A stretch of DNA of 60,063 bases from Candidatus Gottesmanbacteria bacterium. GTDB lineage: Bacteria; Patescibacteriota; Microgenomatia; 2-02-FULL-39-11. Below are positions 33,846 to 42,366 of this stretch, one piece after another (position 1 is the first letter of the stretch; the number at the start of each line of letters is the position of its first letter). The stretch is taken from contig JACPZE010000026.1 of assembly GCA_016195685.1 (NCBI GenBank), positions 1-60,063 of the forward strand, given 5' to 3'. The translations under genes were made by a program, and so were the position numbers. The notes beneath the pieces are model-generated. The model saw only the letters and a list, made by a program, of their open reading frames with translations, was not told where the DNA came from and ran no database searches.

Positions 33846-33899
33846 ATGAATCTGTGGACGATATTTTTAACAGGACTTCTTACAGGCGGACTGACTTAG
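33846..33899 (+). pseudogene. 5' remnant of a DsbD/TauE-cupredoxin paralog
   Basis: Encodes MNLWTIFLTGLLTGGLT*; the gene at 36176 begins MNLWTVFFTGLFTGGLT. Confidence 0.85.
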
Positions 33900-33916: not shown

Positions 33917-33954
33917 TTGACTTGAATAGAATATTGGTACTACAATATGTAGTA
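33917..33954 (+). promoter_or_regulatory. sigma70-type promoter with a BlaI/CopY-type operator
   Basis: TTGACT-18-TACAAT; palindrome TACTAC-AATAT-GTAGTA at 33938-33954 overlaps the -10 and the ATG. Confidence 0.8.
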
Positions 33955-34334
33955 TGAAAGCGAAATCTCTTGGAGAGCTTGAACAGCAGATAATGGATAT
34001 TGTATGGGAATACAAGCATTGTTCAGCACGAGATATTTTAAATAGATTAGAAACTGAAAAAAAACTTGCCTATACAACTATTGCTACTATTCTTCATCGG
34101 CTACATGGTAAAGGACTTGTTGAGAGAAAAGGAGATGGGCTAGCATATATTTATTCTCCTAAACTTACAAAAGAATCCTACAGTAAAAATCTTGCGCAGT
34201 CATTTTTAAAGAAATTCATCCACTCGTTTGGTGACGTCGCTATTGCTTCATTTGCTGCAAGTATAGATCGACTTCCTAAGGGAAAACGTGAATATTTTCT
34301 TACGCTCTTAGAAAAATATGATAAAACCAAATAA
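33954..34334 (+). CDS. BlaI/MecI/CopY-family repressor
   Basis: LGELEQQIMDIVW, LAYTTIATILHRL..KG, YIYSP; no CopY C-terminal CxC. Confidence 0.92.
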   Translation: MKAKSLGELEQQIMDIVWEYKHCSARDILNRLETEKKLAYTTIATILHRLHGKGLVERKGDGLAYIYSPKLTKESYSKNLAQSFLKKFIHSFGDVAIASFAASIDRLPKGKREYFLTLLEKYDKTK

Positions 34335-35310
34335 AAATCTACTTACATTTTTAAGTCTGGCACTTTTCTTAGGTTTAAGCGTTTTTACAGCATCACAAAG
34401 GATTTTACCTTTACTTCTAGAACATAGCGTTTATTATTGCCAAACTTTTATTCACTCTCTGTCTCTGCGTATACCCCATCAAATAGGACTTATTATTCCA
34501 ATACTACTTGCAGTATTGGTATCGGTCGCAGCAATGAAATTCTTTATCATTTATATCCAAACATATCGATTAAGAAAGAAATTGATTGCAAAATCTAAAT
34601 CACAAAAAGATTTTTCAGATCTTCTTAAAAAGTTAGGACTTGCCAATCAAGCATATCTTGTTAAAAGTGATAAACCCTTTGCTTTCTGTTTCGGGATTCG
34701 CAGACCTAAGATTTATGTATCAACAGCTACTGTTTCCCTCATGAACGAGGCAGAATTGGAAGCAATTTTACTTCATGAGAAGTATCATCTGGATAATAAA
34801 GATACTCTCACTATGTTGCTGGCCTCCATTTGTCAATCGCTTTTTCCTTTTTTCCCACTTATCTCGGATCTTTTACGAAATTTCCGAATTGAGCGAGAAA
34901 TTGCCGCAGATCAAGAAGCAATACGTAAACTTGGTGATTCAGAAGTGCTTATTTCTGTACTGAAAAAGTTTCTTACCGCGCCTTCGATTGCTATTGCTAC
35001 TGCACCAGCAATTGCTGATTTTGATACCTTAGAATTACGGATTAAGGCGCTTGTAAAACATGATTTTTATTTTAGAAAGTTTCGCATGGTTAACATAATT
35101 CTTAGTATAATTGCAGTGGTAACACTTAGTACTTTGATATTAGTGCCTGTACATGCAGTAGAACTTCATGCTGATAATCAGGATGTGATGATGGTTTGCC
35201 TACAAGGGGATGCATGTTCAGCATGGTGTAAAGACCATAACACGGTAAAACCATATTCTCAAATACAGAATGCTTCATATCCGTATACTCCTGTGGCACC
35301 TCGGATGTAA
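34318..35310 (+). CDS. M56-family (BlaR1-like) membrane metallopeptidase with a Cys-rich C-terminus
   Basis: PFAFCFG..RPKIYVS, HEKYH, EIAAD; ends CLQGDACSAWC; no penicillin-binding domain. Confidence 0.88.
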   Translation: MIKPNKNLLTFLSLALFLGLSVFTASQRILPLLLEHSVYYCQTFIHSLSLRIPHQIGLIIPILLAVLVSVAAMKFFIIYIQTYRLRKKLIAKSKSQKDFSDLLKKLGLANQAYLVKSDKPFAFCFGIRRPKIYVSTATVSLMNEAELEAILLHEKYHLDNKDTLTMLLASICQSLFPFFPLISDLLRNFRIEREIAADQEAIRKLGDSEVLISVLKKFLTAPSIAIATAPAIADFDTLELRIKALVKHDFYFRKFRMVNIILSIIAVVTLSTLILVPVHAVELHADNQDVMMVCLQGDACSAWCKDHNTVKPYSQIQNASYPYTPVAPRM

Positions 35311-35318
35311 TTTGACAC

Positions 35319-35358
35319 TTGACAAAACAAGCAAATCTCTACTACATTAAGTAGTAGA
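35319..35358 (+). promoter_or_regulatory. second promoter/operator of the same type, upstream of dsbA
   Basis: TTGACA-18-TACATT; palindrome TCTACTAC-ATTAA-GTAGTAGA at 35338-35358. Confidence 0.82.
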
Positions 35359-35395
35359 TATTATTTATTAGGGCGAAGTTAAGGAGACATTTCCT

Positions 35396-36166
35396 ATGTT
35401 AGAAGAAACAAAAAGTACAAGCAATTTCAATATGACAACTATCCTTATTGGTCTTCTTATCGTTGCTTCTTTTGTACTCGGGTCCTTGTGGACAAAAGTG
35501 CAAGTGTTAGAAAAAGGAAATGCAGCAGTTCCCAGCGCACAAGTGGGTACTGTGGGAAAAAACGCAGGTACAGGTGCAGCAGTAGCTCAACAACCTCCAC
35601 CTGCTCAGCAAGCTACTAAAAAGCCTGAACTTACAAGCGATGATCGTATACGGGGAAATAAAAATGCGAAGATTGCTCTCATTGAATATTCTGATTACGA
35701 ATGTCCATTCTGTAAACGGTTTCATCCCACTATGCAGCAAGTCATGAAAGAGTATGGCGATAAAGTGAAATGGGTCTATCGAGATTTTCCCTTAAACTTT
35801 CACCAAAATGCTCAGAAAGAAGCAGAGGGAGGTCGATGTATAAATGAACTGGGAGGCAATGATGCATTCTGGAAATACACTGATGCTATTTTTGACCGCA
35901 CCACCTCAAACGGTACAGGGTTTGCGCTTGATAAACTTGGACCACTTGCAGCTGAAGTGGGTGTAAATCAGGCAAAGTTTCAATCTTGTCTTGACTCTGG
36001 TAAATACACTAAAGCAGTACAAGATCAAGAAGCATTGGGATCATCAGAAGGCGTGACAGGTACACCGGGAACGATTATACTCACTGCCAACGGTGATACG
36101 CAGCTTATACCTGGCGCATTGCCTTTTGAGCAAGTGAAGCCAATGATTGATAAAGCATTACAATAA
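35396..36166 (+). CDS. membrane-anchored DsbA-family oxidoreductase
   Basis: N-terminal TM helix, EYSDYECPFC, YRDFPL, GVTGTP cis-Pro loop. Confidence 0.9.
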   Translation: MLEETKSTSNFNMTTILIGLLIVASFVLGSLWTKVQVLEKGNAAVPSAQVGTVGKNAGTGAAVAQQPPPAQQATKKPELTSDDRIRGNKNAKIALIEYSDYECPFCKRFHPTMQQVMKEYGDKVKWVYRDFPLNFHQNAQKEAEGGRCINELGGNDAFWKYTDAIFDRTTSNGTGFALDKLGPLAAEVGVNQAKFQSCLDSGKYTKAVQDQEALGSSEGVTGTPGTIILTANGDTQLIPGALPFEQVKPMIDKALQ

Positions 36167-36175
36167 GAAGTATCT

Positions 36176-37219
36176 ATGAATTTGTGGACAGTTTTCTTTA
36201 CAGGACTTTTTACTGGTGGTTTAACCTGTCTTGCTGTACAGGGAGGACTCTTGGCGGCAACATTAGCCCAGCGTGAAGAGCAACGACTGGAGAGTGAAAC
36301 AAAAAAAACTGGCAACGCACTTCCCATTCTTTTCTTTTTAGGAGCAAAACTCATCGCCTATACCATTTTAGGATTTCTTCTTGGAGGCTTAGGTTCAGTG
36401 TTCCAATTATCACTTACTGCATCAATAATTATGCAATTTGCAGTGATTATCTTCATGTTTGGTACAGCCGGAAATCTTCTCAACCTTCACCCAATCTTTC
36501 GCTACTTTGTGATCCAGCCTCCACGATTTTTAACTCGGTTAGTACGTGACCAGTCAAAAAGTAACGATTTTTTTGCTCCAGCCCTTCTAGGAGCGTTTAC
36601 CGTATTTATTCCCTGCGGTACAACACAAGCGATGATGGCGCTTGCCATAGCATCTGGTAAGCCAATACTTGGCGCTCTTATTCTGTTTATTTTCATTTTG
36701 GGAACTTCACCTATCTTTTTTATCTTAGGATATTTTACGACGAAACTGGGAGATGCGATGCACCAAAGATTTGTAAGGATTGCAGCATATGCAATTATCC
36801 TTATTGCTTTATTTAATTTAGATGGAGCACTCGCTCTTTCTGGAAGCCCTTTTACCTTTAAAGGGACATTTACTGACGTCTATTGCACAATCTCATGGTG
36901 TGATAATTCTATAGCATATGCAGCAAGCGGCCAAGCTGCTGGAGCTACGACTCAAGAAGCAACCATTAATATCGAATCGTCCGGATATAATCCTGCTCAA
37001 CTTGCAATAAAAGCAGGGTCTCAAGTTACTTTGAAACTCGTTAATACTGGCGGCGGTGGTTGTACATCAGCTTTCACGATACCAAGCTTAGGTATAAGAA
37101 AAATTGTTCCTATAGGCAGTTCAGATACAGTAACTTTTACAGCGCCAAATGAGCCAGGAGGAGAACTAGCATTTATGTGTAGTATGGGAATGTTTAGAGG
37201 TAAACTGAAATTGGTTTAA
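36176..37219 (+). CDS. DsbD/CcdA-like (TauE/SafE) membrane protein with a C-terminal cupredoxin domain
   Basis: TM cysteines GGLTCLAVQGG and FIPCG; C-terminal GGCT..MCSMGMFRG. Confidence 0.85.
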   Translation: MNLWTVFFTGLFTGGLTCLAVQGGLLAATLAQREEQRLESETKKTGNALPILFFLGAKLIAYTILGFLLGGLGSVFQLSLTASIIMQFAVIIFMFGTAGNLLNLHPIFRYFVIQPPRFLTRLVRDQSKSNDFFAPALLGAFTVFIPCGTTQAMMALAIASGKPILGALILFIFILGTSPIFFILGYFTTKLGDAMHQRFVRIAAYAIILIALFNLDGALALSGSPFTFKGTFTDVYCTISWCDNSIAYAASGQAAGATTQEATINIESSGYNPAQLAIKAGSQVTLKLVNTGGGGCTSAFTIPSLGIRKIVPIGSSDTVTFTAPNEPGGELAFMCSMGMFRGKLKLV

Positions 37220-37227
37220 ATGATTAT

Positions 37228-37455
37228 ATGACAACACAAAAAAAACTTCTTAAAATAAATGGTATGCACTGCACTAGTTGTGCTATGAATATAGACGGTG
37301 AGCTTGAAGATACAAAAGGAGTTATCCAGTCAAATACAAACTACGCAAAACAGGTAACAGAAGTAGAATTTGAGGTAGGTAAGATAAATCACGAGAAAAT
37401 AATAGAGATTATTGAAACTGTTGGATACGAAGCGAAACTCATAGATGAAAAATGA
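37228..37455 (+). CDS. CopZ-like heavy-metal chaperone
   Basis: GMHCTSC HMA motif. Confidence 0.9.
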   Translation: MTTQKKLLKINGMHCTSCAMNIDGELEDTKGVIQSNTNYAKQVTEVEFEVGKINHEKIIEIIETVGYEAKLIDEK

Positions 37456-38150
37456 ATGCGCAGGTGAAAAAATTACTAATTCTTACGGGATTACTCCTCG
37501 TTACTCTCGTGGTTGGTTACTTTATAATTGCCCCAGTACAAGTTCTAGAGCGCATAATTCATCCACAAGCTAGAAATAAATTTCAGACAATAGTAGATAA
37601 AATACCGACACAAGCTGGAAAAGCCTTATTTCTTCGGCAAAGCAATAACTTAACAAGAGCGGTTGATCCTGAGCTTGTTGACTTAGATAGTCAAATTATT
37701 TCATGTAACCCAGATGTGACAGGACTTTTCTCGAGTAATCCCACCATTGGTGGCAGTTGTCTTGCAGGGTCAACGACACTTCAGACAACAAAAGGCATGT
37801 ATTTAGGAGGACAGTGCTGTGGTGCTTTAACAGACACGAAAGAATATCATCAGCATTTAGAAGCACTACAAAAGTATAAAAATATTCCTGATATAGTGCT
37901 TGATCCTTATAAAACACCCATAACTCTTGCAAAAAAATGGATCGATTATGATAACCAAACTACACTCAGTGATAAAGATCAGCAAATATATAAACAAGCA
38001 CTTACAGTTTCTCATGAAGGGCCATGCTGTTGTAAATGTTGGCATTACTACGTCAATGAAGGCATTGCCAAGAAACTGATTAAGGATTATGGCTATTCTG
38101 CCCAACAAGTAGCTGATTTTTGGGATGTTTCAGATATTTGCGGGGTATAA
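37452..38150 (+). CDS. membrane-anchored Cys-rich hypothetical protein
   Basis: N-terminal TM helix; GGQCCG, HEGPCCCKCWH, terminal DICG. Confidence 0.8.
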   Translation: MNAQVKKLLILTGLLLVTLVVGYFIIAPVQVLERIIHPQARNKFQTIVDKIPTQAGKALFLRQSNNLTRAVDPELVDLDSQIISCNPDVTGLFSSNPTIGGSCLAGSTTLQTTKGMYLGGQCCGALTDTKEYHQHLEALQKYKNIPDIVLDPYKTPITLAKKWIDYDNQTTLSDKDQQIYKQALTVSHEGPCCCKCWHYYVNEGIAKKLIKDYGYSAQQVADFWDVSDICGV

Positions 38151-38214
38151 GATTTATATGTCATTATGAAGTATAACTGGATGGTTAACGAACGTTGATA
38201 CTATTGCTCGTAAG

Positions 38215-38280
38215 ACTCCGGGTCAATTGACATTTATGTGCGGGATGGGCATGTATAAAGGCAGGATACATATCATTTAA
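38215..38280 (+). pseudogene. 3' remnant of a cupredoxin-tailed gene
   Basis: Startless frame TPGQLTFMCGMGMYKGRIHII*, homologous to the end of the 36176 protein (GELAFMCSMGMFRGKLKLV*). Confidence 0.8.
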
Positions 38281-38282
38281 TT

Positions 38283-38504
38283 ATGCTCAAGAAATCTGTT
38301 TTTAAAATCAGCGGTATGCATTGCAATACTTGTTCTTTAAATATAGATTGGGAATTGGAAGAAACAGATGGGGTAAAGGAAGTAAAGACAAGCTATGCAG
38401 CTCAAAAAACAGAGTTGACATTTGACGACGACTTAATATCTTCAAAGAAAATTATAGAGATTATAAAAAAGACCGGTTACGAAGCTAATTTAATTAAAGA
38501 ATAG
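38283..38504 (+). CDS. second CopZ-like chaperone
   Basis: GMHCNTC HMA motif. Confidence 0.9.
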   Translation: MLKKSVFKISGMHCNTCSLNIDWELEETDGVKEVKTSYAAQKTELTFDDDLISSKKIIEIIKKTGYEANLIKE

Positions 38505-38515
38505 TAGTTCTTAAA

Positions 38516-39223
38516 TTAGAAGTCATTGGGATTCAATGGTGCGTAATTTCCCAAAGAATCTTTACACCGCAGTTCCTTACGAATATCCTGTGGACATTTA
38601 CCATCACCTCCACCGGTAAAGCCTCCGGAAGGAGAACAAAAATAAGTGCCATCTAATCTATATAATGGGTGCATTTGATCGCAACATGGTACTTGGTTAC
38701 GGAAATATAATTTCTCATTGTTATAGGTACATTCTTTTGATCCTCCCCAAAGAATAGATTTTAAAGCAAGAAGCATGCCTATTAAGACAAAGATAAAAAA
38801 AGTAATCAATGCCTTTACTGTACTTTTGATAAGTCTTCTGAGAGCTAATCCTCGTTTTTCGTTGTTTTTGATAAAGAAAACAAATGAGAATACGCAGAAG
38901 ATTAATTCGATAATGAACCAGTTGATTACGCAAAGAAGAAAAAAGACAATATATGTACTTTGATGAAGAAGACCTGATAATTGTCCTATTTCTTTTATTA
39001 TTGAAGATGAAAACCATATAATCCAAAAGACCGTGAGCACGATGAATATGATCAATGTTTTTTTGAGTCTTTTTATCAGAGAAAATTCTTCTTTCTTGAT
39101 TTTCGAGTAAATGAAGTGAAATATTCCAAAAAATATCTCTATAAATGACCAATTCCACAAAAATATAAGTGGGAAGAGGAAAATTCCTAACAAGATATCC
39201 ATCATGTCCAGTCTATTGCTCAA
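38516..39223 (-). CDS. hypothetical membrane protein with a Cys-rich C-terminal domain
   Basis: About 4 TM helices, then a tail with six Cys. Confidence 0.7.
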   Translation of the reverse strand: MSNRLDMMDILLGIFLFPLIFLWNWSFIEIFFGIFHFIYSKIKKEEFSLIKRLKKTLIIFIVLTVFWIIWFSSSIIKEIGQLSGLLHQSTYIVFFLLCVINWFIIELIFCVFSFVFFIKNNEKRGLALRRLIKSTVKALITFFIFVLIGMLLALKSILWGGSKECTYNNEKLYFRNQVPCCDQMHPLYRLDGTYFCSPSGGFTGGGDGKCPQDIRKELRCKDSLGNYAPLNPNDF

Positions 39224-39262: not shown

Positions 39263-41632
39263 CTAAACTTTCGATCTTTTCAGAAGTAGGGAATTAGATA
39301 CTACTGATATTGAAGAAGTAGCCATCGCAAGAGAAGCAAACATAGGATTTAAAAGTATTCCCCAGATAGGATAAAGGATTCCCATTGCTATAGGAATAAG
39401 TACTACATTATAAGCAAAAGCCCAAAATAGATTGAATTTAATAGTTCGCATAGTTTTTTTGGAAAGATTTATCGCTATAGCTACGGATTTCAATTCTTTA
39501 TTTATAAGTGTAATATCCGCCGCCTCGATAGCTACATCAGTCCCGCTACCCATGGCAATTCCTACATCGGCGGAAGCAAGTGCAGGTGCATCATTTATAC
39601 CGTCACCGACAAAAGCAATTACATTTTTAGATTTTAATTTACGGGTCCTGCCGCTCAGGTATCCCAAGCGACGATACATCTCCGCTTGGGACCCCTCCTT
39701 CGCGTCACCCGTAGTTAAAATTATTGTTTTATCTCTTAAATTCTGCACGATTTTCTCTTTCTCCTGAGGTAAAACTTCAGCAAAAACCTTATCTTTATCT
39801 ATTCCTGCAAGTTTTCCTATAGCTTGGGCTGTTTGAGTATTGTCTCCTGTGACCATATAAACATCGATTTTCATCTTCTTGAGTGTATTTACGGCCTCTC
39901 TTGCATCGGGTTTAAGAGTATCGGCTATAGCAAAGAGAGCAACATTTTTCTTATTGATAGCTACATAGGCTAAAGTTTTTCCTTCTTTAGCCCACAGATT
40001 TGCTTTTTTATCCAGTTCACTGCAACGCATGACTTTTTCCTTTTCCATAAGCTTCTTATTACCCACAAGAATATTGACTCCATCTGCCCTTCCTTGTATT
40101 CCATGTCCTTCAATTGCATAAACTTTATCAGTTTTTAATTCCCTGGCTTTATTTTTTAAATATTCAATGATAGCAAAAGATAATGAGTGCTCTGAGTGTT
40201 TTTCCAGAGAATAGATTAATGAAGAAATATAATCGTGAATTGATAAATTATTAGGGATATTAATACCTAAGTCAGTCCCAACATCATCAAGCTTTTCCAT
40301 GAAAGAGAAATCAGTGACTTTGGGTTTTCCGGATGTCAAAGTACCGGTTTTGTCAAAAATAACAGCGTTTATCTTATGTGCAAGTTCCAGACTTTCAGCA
40401 TCTTTAATAAGTATTCCATGTTGGGCACCTAATCCTGTTCCTACCATAATTGCAGTAGGGGTAGCCAGACCCATCGCACAGGGACAGGCAATGATCAAAA
40501 CTGCAATAGCATTAAGCATGGCAAATAGAAAAACAGGTGTTGGACCAAAAATGTACCATACAACGAAAGTAAAAATGGCCAGCATAATCACAATTGGTAC
40601 AAAGTAAGAAGATATTATATCTGCAATTCGTTGTATTGGCGCTTTACTTCCTTGGGCTTCTTGGACGAGCTTAATTATCTGGGCGAGCATGGTGTCGCTT
40701 CCGATTTTAGTTGCCTTGAAAGTAAAAGAGCCTGTTTTATTGATAGTTGCCCCAATTACGTTATCTTCTTTACCTTTCTCAACGGGAATACTTTCTCCGG
40801 TAACCATGGATTCATCGATCGATGATTGGCCTTCAATAATAATTCCGTCAACTGGAATTTTTTCTCCGGGACGAACGCGGATCAAATCTCCGATCATAAC
40901 TTCTTCTATCGGAATATCAATTTCTTTACCGTTTCGAATTACTCGAGCTGTTTTTGCCTGAAGGCCTATCAATTTCTTAATCGCTTCAGATGTTCCGGCT
41001 TTTGCCCGCGCTTCTAAATATCGGCCCAAGAGTATTAGAGAGATTATGATGGTGGCTACGTCGAAGTAGGGAAGGGGTTCTATACCGGTATTTTTTATAA
41101 ACTGTGGTAAAAAAGTTACAAATACCGAGTATCCATAGGCTACAGTAGTACCGAAGGCAACCAATGTATCCATGTTGGCAGTTCGATGACGTAGGGCTGG
41201 AATTGTAGCGCGGTAAAAGATGGAGCCGATCCAAAACTGGACAGGAGTAGCCAAAAATAATTGGAAGTAGAAATTTTTTAGGATAAATGGTGCAGTATCC
41301 ATGAGTCCCGGGAAGCTGCCCCAAAGTATAAGTCCTCCAATAATCAGGCTGAAAATTACTTTATCCCGTAATTCAATTAATTCCTTTTTCTTTTCTAACT
41401 CTTCCGAAGACTTATTATTTTCTTCAGCTAGTATCGCTTTATAACCGACATTCACAACTGCCGTTTCCAGATCAATATCTTTGACTTTTTGAGGATCGAT
41501 AGTAACTGTAGCTTTCTCGGTAGCTAGATTGACGTTGGCATCTGTGACACCAGCTACTCTCCCTAAGGATTTCTCCAATACTCTAACGCACGATGCGCAA
41601 TGCATGCCTTTGATGGTAAAAATTTTTTTCAC
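39263..41632 (-). CDS. copA: P1B-type copper-translocating ATPase carrying a repeat-derived insertion
   Basis: GMHCASC, TGES, CPC, DKTGT, GDGIND, YN; ~30-aa insert before NVIAFVGDG. Confidence 0.95.
39642..39711. repeat. family A palindromic element in frame inside copA
   Basis: 62/70 identical to the intergenic copy at 43540-43609. Confidence 0.92.
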
Positions 41633-41639
41633 ATTCGCT

Positions 41640-41683
41640 CCCTTCGTTCCTCAGGATAAACCCTTCGGTTGCTCAGTGTAAAC
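41640..41683. repeat. two tandem family C REP-like units
   Basis: cccttcgttcctcaggataaac then cccttcggttgctcagtgtaaac. Confidence 0.75.
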
Positions 41684-41689
41684 ATATTT

Positions 41690-42043
41690 TTATTTAACAA
41701 TAATTTTTCCATGAAACATACTCATACCGCAGGAGAAGGGGAACGTACCAGTTGATTTAGGCGTTATGACAACGCTTACTTTTTCATTCAGCGGCAGATA
41801 TTTTTTAATCTTAAACTCCGGTAAAATTACTTCCTCAAGACAAGAATTCTGGTCTTTTCTTATAAAATTTAGAGTCGTGGCTTGGTTTTGTTTCAATGCT
41901 ATATTGGAAGGATTATATCCGCCGTCAACTGTAATATCTATTTCATCTTTTGCCTCTACAGCTTCCTCTTTTTTGCCAAAGAAAAACCAGTAGGTGAAAA
42001 TTACTCCAATCAAACCGGTTATTATAACGATGAATTTATCCAT
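41690..42043 (-). CDS. membrane-anchored cupredoxin (CupA-like)
   Basis: TM helix, GGYNP, SCLEEV, FSCGMSM. Confidence 0.88.
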   Translation of the reverse strand: MDKFIVIITGLIGVIFTYWFFFGKKEEAVEAKDEIDITVDGGYNPSNIALKQNQATTLNFIRKDQNSCLEEVILPEFKIKKYLPLNEKVSVVITPKSTGTFPFSCGMSMFHGKIIVK

Positions 42044-42308
42044 TTTTTTGCGATTTTTTAAATACTGCCATCACTTCATCTATGACTTCTTTTGAGTTTC
42101 CCTTCTTGATGGCATCAACGACACATGTATTTAAATGATTATTAAGAACCAATGAATCAATTTCCTTCAGCGCAGCTTCTACCGCTTGTAGTTGATGAAG
42201 TACATCTATACAGTAAACATCTCTCTCTACCATTTCCCGGACTTTTTTCAGATGTCCTTCGGTGATCTGCAGTCTTCTGATAATTGATGATCTATTACCA
42301 TTTCTCAT
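42036..42308 (-). CDS. csoR: CsoR-family copper-sensing repressor
   Basis: RLQITEGHL, YCIDVLHQ, NHLNTCV (Cys-His-Cys ligands). Confidence 0.9.
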   Translation of the reverse strand: MRNGNRSSIIRRLQITEGHLKKVREMVERDVYCIDVLHQLQAVEAALKEIDSLVLNNHLNTCVVDAIKKGNSKEVIDEVMAVFKKSQKNG

Positions 42309-42312
42309 CTTA

Positions 42313-42366
42313 TATCCCCTAGGGGGGGATAGGGATAATATAACAGAGTCAACAACCGGATGTCAA
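42313..42366 (-). promoter_or_regulatory. csoR-cupA-copA promoter with a CsoR-type operator
   Basis: Minus-strand TTGACA-18-TATATT; G/C-tract palindrome TATCCCC-TAGGG-GGGGATA at 42313-42331. Confidence 0.78.

Follow-up and report, generated by a model that had tools for sequence, protein, structure and literature searches.

A BlaI/M56 repressor-protease cassette over a disulfide and copper operon in Patescibacteria: a predicted switch for extracytoplasmic copper or thiol stress

Six closely spaced genes on the plus strand (33917-38150) of a contig from Candidatus Gottesmanbacteria bacterium (GCA_016195685.1, JACPZE010000026.1; the analysed stretch of 60,063 nucleotides is called the window throughout) encode a BlaI-type repressor, a BlaR1-type M56 membrane protease, a DsbA-like thiol-disulfide oxidoreductase, a DsbD_2-cupredoxin fusion, the copper chaperone CopZ and a cysteine-rich membrane protein. 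Peptidases of the BlaR1/MecR1 (M56) type trigger the inactivation of BlaI-type repressors. As the first-pass annotation of this DNA had proposed, the pair, equipped with operators of its own, appears to drive a disulfide and copper operon instead of a beta-lactamase gene, and both the synteny and the register of the operators are conserved. We consider it somewhat probable (roughly 0.55) that this is a self-contained, horizontally mobile BlaI/BlaR1 (BlaIR) cassette working like the PetR/PetP pair of Synechocystis, with Cu(I) or copper-driven thiol oxidation sensed outside the cell. We infer copper, or copper-linked thiol stress acting through extracytoplasmic cysteines, as the signal because the protease has conserved cysteines predicted to lie outside, because methionine, histidine and tryptophan surround them in the window's own clade (clade A), and because the same operator stands before csoR, copA or cupA in relatives.

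Operators, repressor and protease

The palindrome TACTAC-N5-GTAGTA occurs in exact form twice in the window (33938-33954 and 35340-35356), and no other site with zero or one mismatch is found in its 60,063 bases; shuffled sequence held 0.04 sites on average and none of 100 shuffles reached two. Operator O1 (33938..33954, plus strand, TACTACAATATGTAGTA) overlaps the -10 box and the start codon of blaI, and operator O2 (35340..35356, plus strand, TACTACATTAAGTAGTA) overlaps the -10 box of the dsbA promoter, i.e., the two palindromes over the -10 boxes of matching promoters that the first-pass annotation had described are both present. The promoters are sigma-70-like, and in each the -10 hexamer lies inside the palindrome. 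That of blaI (33917..33946, plus strand; 10/12 in a consensus scan) consists of TTGACT (33917-33922), an 18-nucleotide (nt) spacer and TACAAT (33941-33946), and that of the dsbA operon (35319..35348, plus strand, also from the consensus scan) of TTGACA (35319-35324), an 18-nt spacer and TACATT (35343-35348). As the blaI ATG (33954) starts at the last base of O1, 7 nt past the -10 box, the blaI mRNA is probably leaderless. Other BlaI-family proteins bind 6-N5-6 dyads (PMC8457756), and a conserved dyad over the -10 boxes of both promoters predicts binding of the repressor here. In relatives, a 6-N5-6 sequence identical to O1 stands upstream of blaI (loci L006, L010, L020, L023, L025, L027, L045 and L061) with the promoter-to-operator register of the window, and nearly all aligned relatives carry a fixed TTGACA-N15-TACTACA(A/C)T..GTAGTA upstream of dsbA. 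Positions 7 and 9 of the site, in the spacer of the palindrome, are conserved in the site alignment and supply the A and T of the -10 box within it. The motif of M. tuberculosis BlaI, probably TAC(G/T)AC-N5-GT(A/C)GTA, carries no weight in this argument.

The repressor (33954..34334, plus strand, 126 amino acids) belongs to the BlaI/MecI/CopY winged-helix family (PF03965, E 2.7e-25; 89.4 bits, cut-off 22.6) and matches the structures of MecI and BlaI (1OKR, 1SD4) as well as BlaI of M. tuberculosis. Its S99-F100 aligns with the N101-F102 cleavage site of MecI/BlaI, which places F100 on the P1' phenylalanine that is almost invariant among BlaI-type repressors (PMC9834060). Across 44 orthologues the stretch SFGDxAIASFAESID is the best-kept part of the C-terminal half, its ASF being conserved. 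No C-terminal CxC or CxCx4CxC metal site is present in the repressor or its 43 orthologues, the C-terminal half is without cysteine, and the only conserved cysteine of the protein (C23) sits in the DNA-binding domain. Given the missing C-terminal CxC motif, the repressor is, as judged from its residues, not a direct metal sensor of the CopY type.

The protease gene (34318..35310, plus strand, 330 amino acids) overlaps blaI by 17 nt, and its product is a BlaR1-type membrane zinc protease with matches to PF05569 (E 5e-19; 69 bits, cut-off 31) and PF01435. By sequence it matches S. aureus BlaR1 (8EXP, residues 103-257), and BlaR1 is also the top structural match of its AlphaFold2 (AF2) model (Foldseek probability 1.0 to 8EXP and 8EXR; mean predicted local distance difference test (pLDDT) score 73.8, with a confident core). 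The protease should be active, as H153-E154-x-x-H157, E194 and D198 are invariant in 191 relatives. Hydropathy and charge distribution predict transmembrane (TM) helices at about 8-26, 62-80 and 260-278, with Lys/Arg-rich stretches after the second and before the third; based on this positive-inside pattern and the BlaR1 alignment, the protease domain is predicted to be cytoplasmic, and the loop 27-61 and the tail 279-330 to be outside. The claim in the first-pass annotation that this M56 peptidase lacks a penicillin-binding domain holds, for there is no match to the transpeptidase/penicillin-binding protein (PBP) family PF00905, scores against the NCBIfam blaR1 models are far under the cut-offs, and the chain has only 52 residues left after the last TM helix.

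More than 220 close homologues of the protease were found, along with ca. 239 clusters at 50% identity (E <=1e-30), and a scan of one genome per species yielded 80 loci, in which open reading frames (ORFs) were called and compared with the proteins of the window. Most of these loci belong to Gottesman-, Woese-, Levy-, Roizman- and Daviesbacteria, WWE3 and other Patescibacteria; overall, well over 100 sequence stretches from uncultured Patescibacteria show this arrangement. Counting CopA, CopZ, CsoR, a cupredoxin or a DsbD_2-cupredoxin as a copper gene, the 46 loci of clade A have dsbA directly after the M56 gene in 41 of the 44 that could be evaluated, an exact operator right after the M56 gene in 42/44 and a copper gene in 34/46. 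The corresponding figures are 0/19, 15/19 and 3/19 for the 19 loci of clade B (sister Patescibacteria), and 0/13, 1/13 and 3/14 for 14 loci from Chloroflexi, Firmicutes and others. In 1.05 Mb of these loci we found 91 exact operators against 0.1 expected from base composition. A survey independent of the proteins, in which metagenome contigs were scanned for TTGACA-N15-TACTACANTNNGTAGTA, gave at least 82 sites; among those listed, the first downstream gene is DsbA-like at 45, unknown at 25, blaI at four, cupA-like followed by copA at one, and cut off by the contig end at seven, and an M56 gene lies just upstream at 52. A dsbA-like gene is thus the gene most consistently found under the operator. 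The neighbourhood survey, which the first-pass annotation had put forward as a check, therefore finds synteny, operator and promoter register kept in dozens of Patescibacteria genomes.

The operator also precedes genes of other kinds. About 14 of the 25 unknown first genes among the operator sites listed encode a small membrane protein ending in PQSMVGGC. In the sister BlaI/M56 clade (Daviesbacteria, WWE3) the same operator stands before a membrane protein of 80-105 amino acids with a VLRVPKPN...LFQTFQL helix and a C-terminal PQSMVGGC (L051 8973-9286, L052, L053, L055, L060, L063, L095, L100, L125, L132-L135, L139, L140, L148, L151, L153 and L158), and it also precedes a membrane protein of ca. 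150 amino acids (SGWNFTWEQFTQFWYY). DUF3105 proteins, which are recurrent neighbours of DsbA, are likewise part of the operator regulon. Second DsbA-like proteins of 375-395 amino acids under the operator in WWE3 genomes were considered as VKOR fusions, an assignment that we dropped, as they have DsbA/thioredoxin domains only. Many contigs (L002, L004-L007, L014-L017 and others) are titled 'uncultured Gammaproteobacteria bacterium' even though their gene content and best matches are typical of Patescibacteria; the submitting pipeline probably mislabelled them, and the titles were not used for taxonomy.

Output operon, copper neighbourhood and mobility

The last four genes of the block, separated by gaps of 9, 8 and -4 nt, are on account of this spacing predicted to form one operon, and the first-pass annotation had named their products correctly as DsbA, a DsbD-like cupredoxin fusion, CopZ and a Cys-rich protein, the first three having Pfam matches. 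The membrane-anchored DsbA-like oxidoreductase (35396..36166, plus strand; PF13462, PF01323) has the active site CPFC, a single predicted N-terminal TM helix and an AAGGAG ribosome-binding site 9 nt before its ATG. Its nearest solved relatives include ScsC (6NEN, 4XVW, 6MHH, 4GXZ; E 3e-12 to 3e-9) from Caulobacter, Proteus and Salmonella, although the best structural-sequence match is a generic disulfide isomerase (4N30) and not ScsC. ScsC proteins are copper-resistance factors (PMC10907172, PMC5524982, PMC8900818).

The next gene (36176..37219, plus strand) fuses a six-helix DsbD_2 (CcdA-like) domain (PF13386) to a CupA-like cupredoxin (PF13473), a combination that differs from an electron transporter of the ScsB/DsbD type, of which no sign was found in this membrane partner. 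The cupredoxin aligns with CupA of S. pneumoniae (2MRY, 4F2E) and keeps the C...CxMxM copper ligands (GGC, CSMGM), which fall onto what we take to be Cys74 and Cys111/Met113/Met115 in CupA numbering. CopZ (37228..37455, plus strand; PF00403, MHCTSC) is a copper chaperone of the HMA type, its NCBIfam CopZ and MerP-type matches staying below the cut-offs. Triple fusions of HMA, TM helix, DsbD_2 and cupredoxin occur in relatives (L003 5701-7455 and L018 4704-6077, the latter on the minus strand; both Pfam-checked), and similar ORFs of 450-640 amino acids are found in L019, L020, L023, L026, L028, L030, L032-L034, L037, L042 and L046. The extra TM helix would place the HMA domain inside and the cupredoxin outside. 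Since relatives fuse HMA to DsbD_2-cupredoxin, the CopZ of the window is probably tied functionally to the DsbD_2 membrane protein; the triple fusions imply that a Cu(I) chaperone domain, a CcdA-like domain with two conserved cysteines and an outside CupA-like site would work together, and that HMA-DsbD_2-cupredoxin may act as a relay for copper, not just as a conduit for electrons.

The operon ends with a membrane-anchored Cys-rich protein of 232 amino acids (37452..38150, plus strand; nine invariant cysteines, PCCCxCWH), whose start overlaps the copZ stop by 4 nt. It had no significant family or fold match in Pfam, NCBIfam, a PDB-sequence profile search or Foldseek against the PDB (AF2 model pLDDT 86). 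The 385 homologues (55-70% identity) come not only from Patescibacteria but from Thaumarchaeota and Pacearchaeota too, and the gene recurs downstream of operator-controlled dsbA and, in Thaumarchaeota, beside DsbA genes. It is nearly always the third of three genes, after a DsbA-like gene and one for a membrane protein of 173-188 amino acids that has either a helix with CxxC or DUF3105 (e.g., L204/L205 5001-5708, L206 5001-5699, L207 5001-5663). These neighbourhoods suggest that the Cys-rich protein is a partner or client of DsbA, so far uncharacterised.

Beside the cassette lies a copper circuit on the minus strand (39263..42330), with a CsoR box (42314-42330), csoR (42036-42308), a cupA-like chaperone gene (41690-42043) and copA (39263-41632); the csoR promoter reads TTGACA-18-TATATT, followed by ATCCCCCCCTAGGGGAT. 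The stand-alone cupredoxin between csoR and copA matches CupA (E 7e-21) with its ligands kept (NSC, CGMSM). The gene order csoR, cupA-like, copA is that of pneumococcal copY-cupA-copA, but the repressor is of the CsoR family. Downstream of copA (38516-39223, minus strand) a five-helix DUF6970 membrane protein with six cysteines in its predicted outside tail appears to be another Cys-rich envelope protein of the copper locus. In the window, the CsoR-type box is found only at the csoR promoter and absent from the cassette promoters, and the BlaI-type operator only at the two cassette promoters and not at that of csoR. The separation of the cassette from the CsoR circuit, as claimed in the first-pass annotation, therefore applies to the window, where each box keeps to its own promoters, but not to some relatives, which are cross-wired. 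There, the csoR promoter holds the operator in its spacer, adjoining the CsoR-type C4-N-G4 box (L007 12744-12760, L009 1675-1691, L016 1314-1330), or the operator is placed between csoR and cupA-copA (L097 524-561). In relatives it also stands before copA (L016) and before dsbD_2-cupredoxin (L010).

The edges of the cassette bear on its origin. On its left (33846..33896, plus strand, MNLWTIFLTGLLTGGLT) lie 17 codons and a stop that we read as the 5' remnant of an older dsbD_2-cupredoxin gene (76% DNA identity to 36169-36219; tblastn 82% over 17 amino acids, E 8e-5), and on its right (38197..38280, plus strand) a 3' remnant with the CxMxM end, which matches the last 31 codons (81% DNA identity to 37170-37200; tblastn E 0.002). 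As these remnants flank the cassette, the segment 33897-38196 has apparently replaced the interior of an older dsbD_2-cupredoxin gene that stood with copZ beside csoR-cupA-copA. A second copZ (38283..38504, plus strand, PF00403; 54% identical to the cassette CopZ), a resident that belongs with the older locus, comes next and has no visible operator in front. In G+C content the segment is like its surroundings (0.38 vs 0.36). The protease's closest relative (85% identity) is encoded in the same blaI-M56-dsbA-dsbD_2 block, which is flanked there by quite unlike genes (a Fic gene and a Ca-type ATPase; L081-L083), and thus the block would move as a unit together with its own regulators. No Rfam family scores above its gathering threshold in the 60-kb window, nor is any tRNA, rRNA or riboswitch detectable there.

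Candidate sensor, proposed mechanism and rival explanations

The cysteines of the protease that are predicted to lie outside are C41 in the first loop and C294, C300 and C304 in the tail. The first-pass annotation had the protein end in C-x5-C-x3-C; the motif is real (C294, C300, C304), but 26 further residues follow it, and C41 adds a fourth conserved outside cysteine to this triad. All four occur together in 153 of 191 M56 sequences. Around them, clade A has residues of a soft-metal type, i.e., Met at 290-293 (141/157, as compared with 2/17 in clade B), His36 (118/155 vs 3/19), His284 (73%; another residue is commonest at that position in clade B) and Trp303 (84/149 vs 1/16). The loop 27-61 has one invariant cysteine and no methionine, the methionines being in the tail instead.

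We postulate the following sequence of events. At rest, repressor dimers would sit on both 17-bp operators and, as each operator covers a -10 box, would block RNA polymerase at two promoters, that of blaI-M56 (autoregulation) and that of dsbA-dsbD_2/cupA-copZ-cysrich. The three-helix protease would turn outward its first loop (H36, C41) and its 52-residue tail (H284, M291, M292, C294, C300, W303, C304); Cu(I) binding, or copper-driven oxidation of these thiols, would alter the contact between loop and tail, the two elements through which BlaR1 likewise passes its signal, and open the protease site. The protease would then cut the repressor near S99-F100, and both promoters would fire. The output could be an envelope defence resembling Scs, in which the DsbA-like oxidoreductase repairs or protects thiols, the CcdA-like membrane protein carries an outside CupA-type Cu(I) site with CopZ as its cytoplasmic partner, and the Cys-rich protein acts as the companion that DsbA has in many genomes. 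Cytoplasmic copper would be handled apart by the neighbouring CsoR-cupA-copA circuit.

Several observations weigh against copper sensing by these outside residues. The AF2 model falls below a pLDDT of 50 at residues 35-53 and 277-330, which is exactly the sensor region. In seven to nine dsbA-linked proteases the tail is short and holds C294 only, so that C41 and C294 are what they retain, and the Met, His and Trp residues of clade A are frequent without being invariant. That the outside cysteines are even in number would suit structural disulfides just as well. The four TM helices and two loop methionines of PetP are not found in the protease, which therefore lacks the ligands proposed for PetP, and the sequence of the DsbA-like protein does not appear to tell oxidising, reducing and copper-binding roles apart. 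Moreover, the cysteine scaffold is common to sister clade B, where the operators stand before unrelated small membrane proteins; since a clade with target genes other than dsbA and copper genes has the triad, the triad alone would not specify copper.

The same facts can be read as a homeostat of oxidative folding, in which the outside cysteines are substrates of the DsbA-like protein and become reduced or mis-paired when DsbA runs short, whereupon the repressor is cleaved and more DsbA is made, copper not being the direct signal. That dsbA alone is under the operator almost without exception, that four outside cysteines could make two disulfides (with C41 and C294 as the invariant pair), that clade B has the same cysteines with a copper gene in only 3/19 loci, and that Cys-rich and DUF3105 proteins accompany DsbA in the regulon as well would all suit it; against it stand the enrichment of copper genes around clade A (34/46 loci), the placing of the operator in front of csoR, copA and cupA in relatives, the clade A-specific Met, His and Trp flanking the cysteines, and the copper-responsive precedent of PetRP. 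On balance, we regard a homeostat of this kind as possible yet doubtful, and as copper stress is itself thiol stress, it overlaps with copper sensing and the two are not exclusive. A bolder version, which we rate as a rather unlikely conjecture, would make the four outside cysteines a thiol switch and a client of the DsbA/DsbD_2 system that the protease controls, i.e., a closed-loop thiol/copper homeostat, with the Cys-rich protein as an unrecognised redox partner of DsbA (e.g., a stand-in for DsbB/VKOR) and not a mere substrate. The signal might also arise inside the cell or in the membrane, e.g., as Cu(I) passed from CopZ to C124 or as a membrane state, with the outside cysteines purely structural. 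All Patescibacteria members keep C124, which sits beside the active-site strand of the cytoplasmic protease domain, and copZ is within the operon; PetP, too, needs copper in extracts, its sensing site being unproven (bioRxiv 10.1101/2020.07.31.226407). We nevertheless consider an inside signal improbable, given that CsoR already serves as a cytoplasmic copper sensor next door, that C124 is also kept in clade B and Chloroflexi, where a copper context is missing, and that BlaR1 takes its signal from its extracellular loop and C-terminal domain (PMC9834060).

Two further explanations we reject. Were the palindromes intrinsic terminators or repeats and the M56 protein a housekeeping protease unrelated to downstream transcription, one could point to the second palindrome, which a scan lists as a weak hairpin followed by a T-rich stretch; yet the stem has just three G-C pairs, the sequence itself and not only its pairing is invariant across phyla without compensatory changes, the site recurs before blaI, where a terminator would serve no purpose, its distance from TTGACA stays at 15 nt and the -10 box lies within it, and an InterPro survey finds 96% of M56 proteins adjoining a BlaI-like gene (bioRxiv 10.64898/2026.04.08.717257). 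The invariant sequence, the TTGACA register and the copy before blaI make this very hard to believe. A classical sensor of beta-lactams or cell-wall damage like BlaR1/MecR1, as the family membership of both proteins would have it, is almost certainly not what the pair is, as the protease has no transpeptidase/PBP domain after its last TM helix, the tail being only 52 residues long, and no beta-lactamase or PBP gene stands under the operators in the window or in ca. 160 related loci. We thus return to an outside copper or copper-linked thiol signal as the reading that we prefer.

Significance and comparison with known systems

For the subfamily, the analysis provides a testable package, i.e., an exact operator, a register-fixed promoter, a small regulon, candidate ligand residues and a candidate signal, and the circuit would rank among the few defined transcriptional circuits in Patescibacteria. 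Members of this group cannot be grown alone; the cassette, which brings its regulators along, lends itself to reconstitution in a heterologous host. Should copper prove to be the signal, the PetRP principle would extend beyond cyanobacteria, and an envelope sensor and the cytoplasmic CsoR would coexist even in very small genomes. The system bears on what sensor-less BlaR proteins detect and on regulation in an uncultured phylum, and it introduces no new principle.

Among known systems, BlaI/BlaR1 and MecI/MecR1 (staphylococci, Bacillus) share with the cassette the folds of repressor and protease, the HExxH motif with a downstream Glu, the P1' Phe alignment, a palindromic operator over the promoter and autoregulation, the last being predicted here. 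BlaR1 cleaves BlaI directly, the signal passing via an extracellular loop and a C-terminal extracellular domain to the cytoplasmic protease (PMC9834060). Unlike BlaR1/MecR1, the protease described here has no acyl-serine sensor domain and its cassette no beta-lactamase or PBP2a target, and the operator has 6-bp arms and a 5-nt spacer, the staphylococcal core motif being reported as TACA/TGTA. The absence of a PBP domain is not exceptional, as most M56 proteins are without it: an InterPro survey puts the share of BlaR1-like proteases lacking a beta-lactam sensor at ca. 94%, their signals being largely unknown (bioRxiv 10.64898/2026.04.08.717257). Rv1846c/Rv1845c of M. tuberculosis, CenIR of C. 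difficile and PvmSR of P. aeruginosa similarly place an M56 protein without a transpeptidase domain beside a BlaI-like repressor with a non-beta-lactam regulon (bioRxiv 10.64898/2026.04.08.717257; 10.64898/2026.08.03.742534). Their regulons comprise envelope hydrolases, energy metabolism and virulence, and none is reported with dsbA or copper genes or with a Cys-bearing loop and tail.

On the copper side, CopY/CopR of Firmicutes belong to the same repressor family (CopY_TcrY is the best NCBIfam match here, below cut-off) and control copper genes that include CupA or CopZ and CopA. CopY binds Cu(I)/Zn(II) itself via a C-terminal CxCx4CxC and needs no protease (PMC11672702), whereas the repressor of the cassette is devoid of the CopY motif and is paired with a protease. 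The Scs proteins ScsC and ScsB resemble the output operon as a copper-linked pair of a DsbA-like and a DsbD-superfamily protein guarding envelope thiols (PMC10907172, PMC5524982, PMC8900818); in the cassette, however, the partner is of the DsbD_2/CcdA type with a CupA-like cupredoxin in place of ScsB, and the host is a monoderm-like Patescibacterium. Salmonella scsABCD is under an envelope copper-stress regulatory pathway (PMC10907172), a position taken here by the BlaI/M56 pair.

The closest parallel in the proposed mode of action is PetR/PetP of Synechocystis PCC 6803, in which the repressor PetR is degraded by the M48/M56 protease PetP only with copper (Garcia-Canas et al. 2021; bioRxiv 10.1101/2020.07.31.226407; PMC7896320; PMC13421787). 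PetP is without a sensor domain, and a short outside loop has been proposed as its copper site (bioRxiv 10.1101/2020.07.31.226407). Both systems combine a BlaI-type repressor with a membrane protease encoded by overlapping genes and free of a penicillin-binding domain, both have half-sites 5 nt apart (core GAC-N5-GTC in PetR/PetP, TAC-N5-GTA at the site centre here), and the PetR/PetP regulon is small and made up of copper-related extracytoplasmic proteins (plastocyanin is a cupredoxin), as we propose for the cassette. Compared by description, PetP has four predicted TM helices and a 14-residue TM2-TM3 loop with two conserved Met as the proposed ligands, in contrast to three predicted helices, a loop of ca. 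35 residues with an invariant Cys and a 52-residue Cys/Met tail in the protease studied here. PetR also activates petJ, and PetRP switches photosynthetic electron carriers, whereas the output here is a DsbA/DsbD_2-CupA/CopZ module.

Since those two features of PetP and the sensor domain of BlaR1 are missing, the system, on its sequence features, would belong to neither PetRP nor BlaR1 as named. A literature search found no description of it in Patescibacteria and no link between M56, DsbA and copper. In kind, it is already known from the BlaIR switches, from the copper-responsive PetRP without a sensor domain, from CopY and from the sensor-less majority of M56 proteins. What is new, as far as the literature searched shows, is a large subfamily in Patescibacteria whose loop bears Cys and whose tail bears Cys and Met, together with an operator and promoter that are exactly conserved and a DsbA-centred regulon with CupA, CopZ and DsbD_2.

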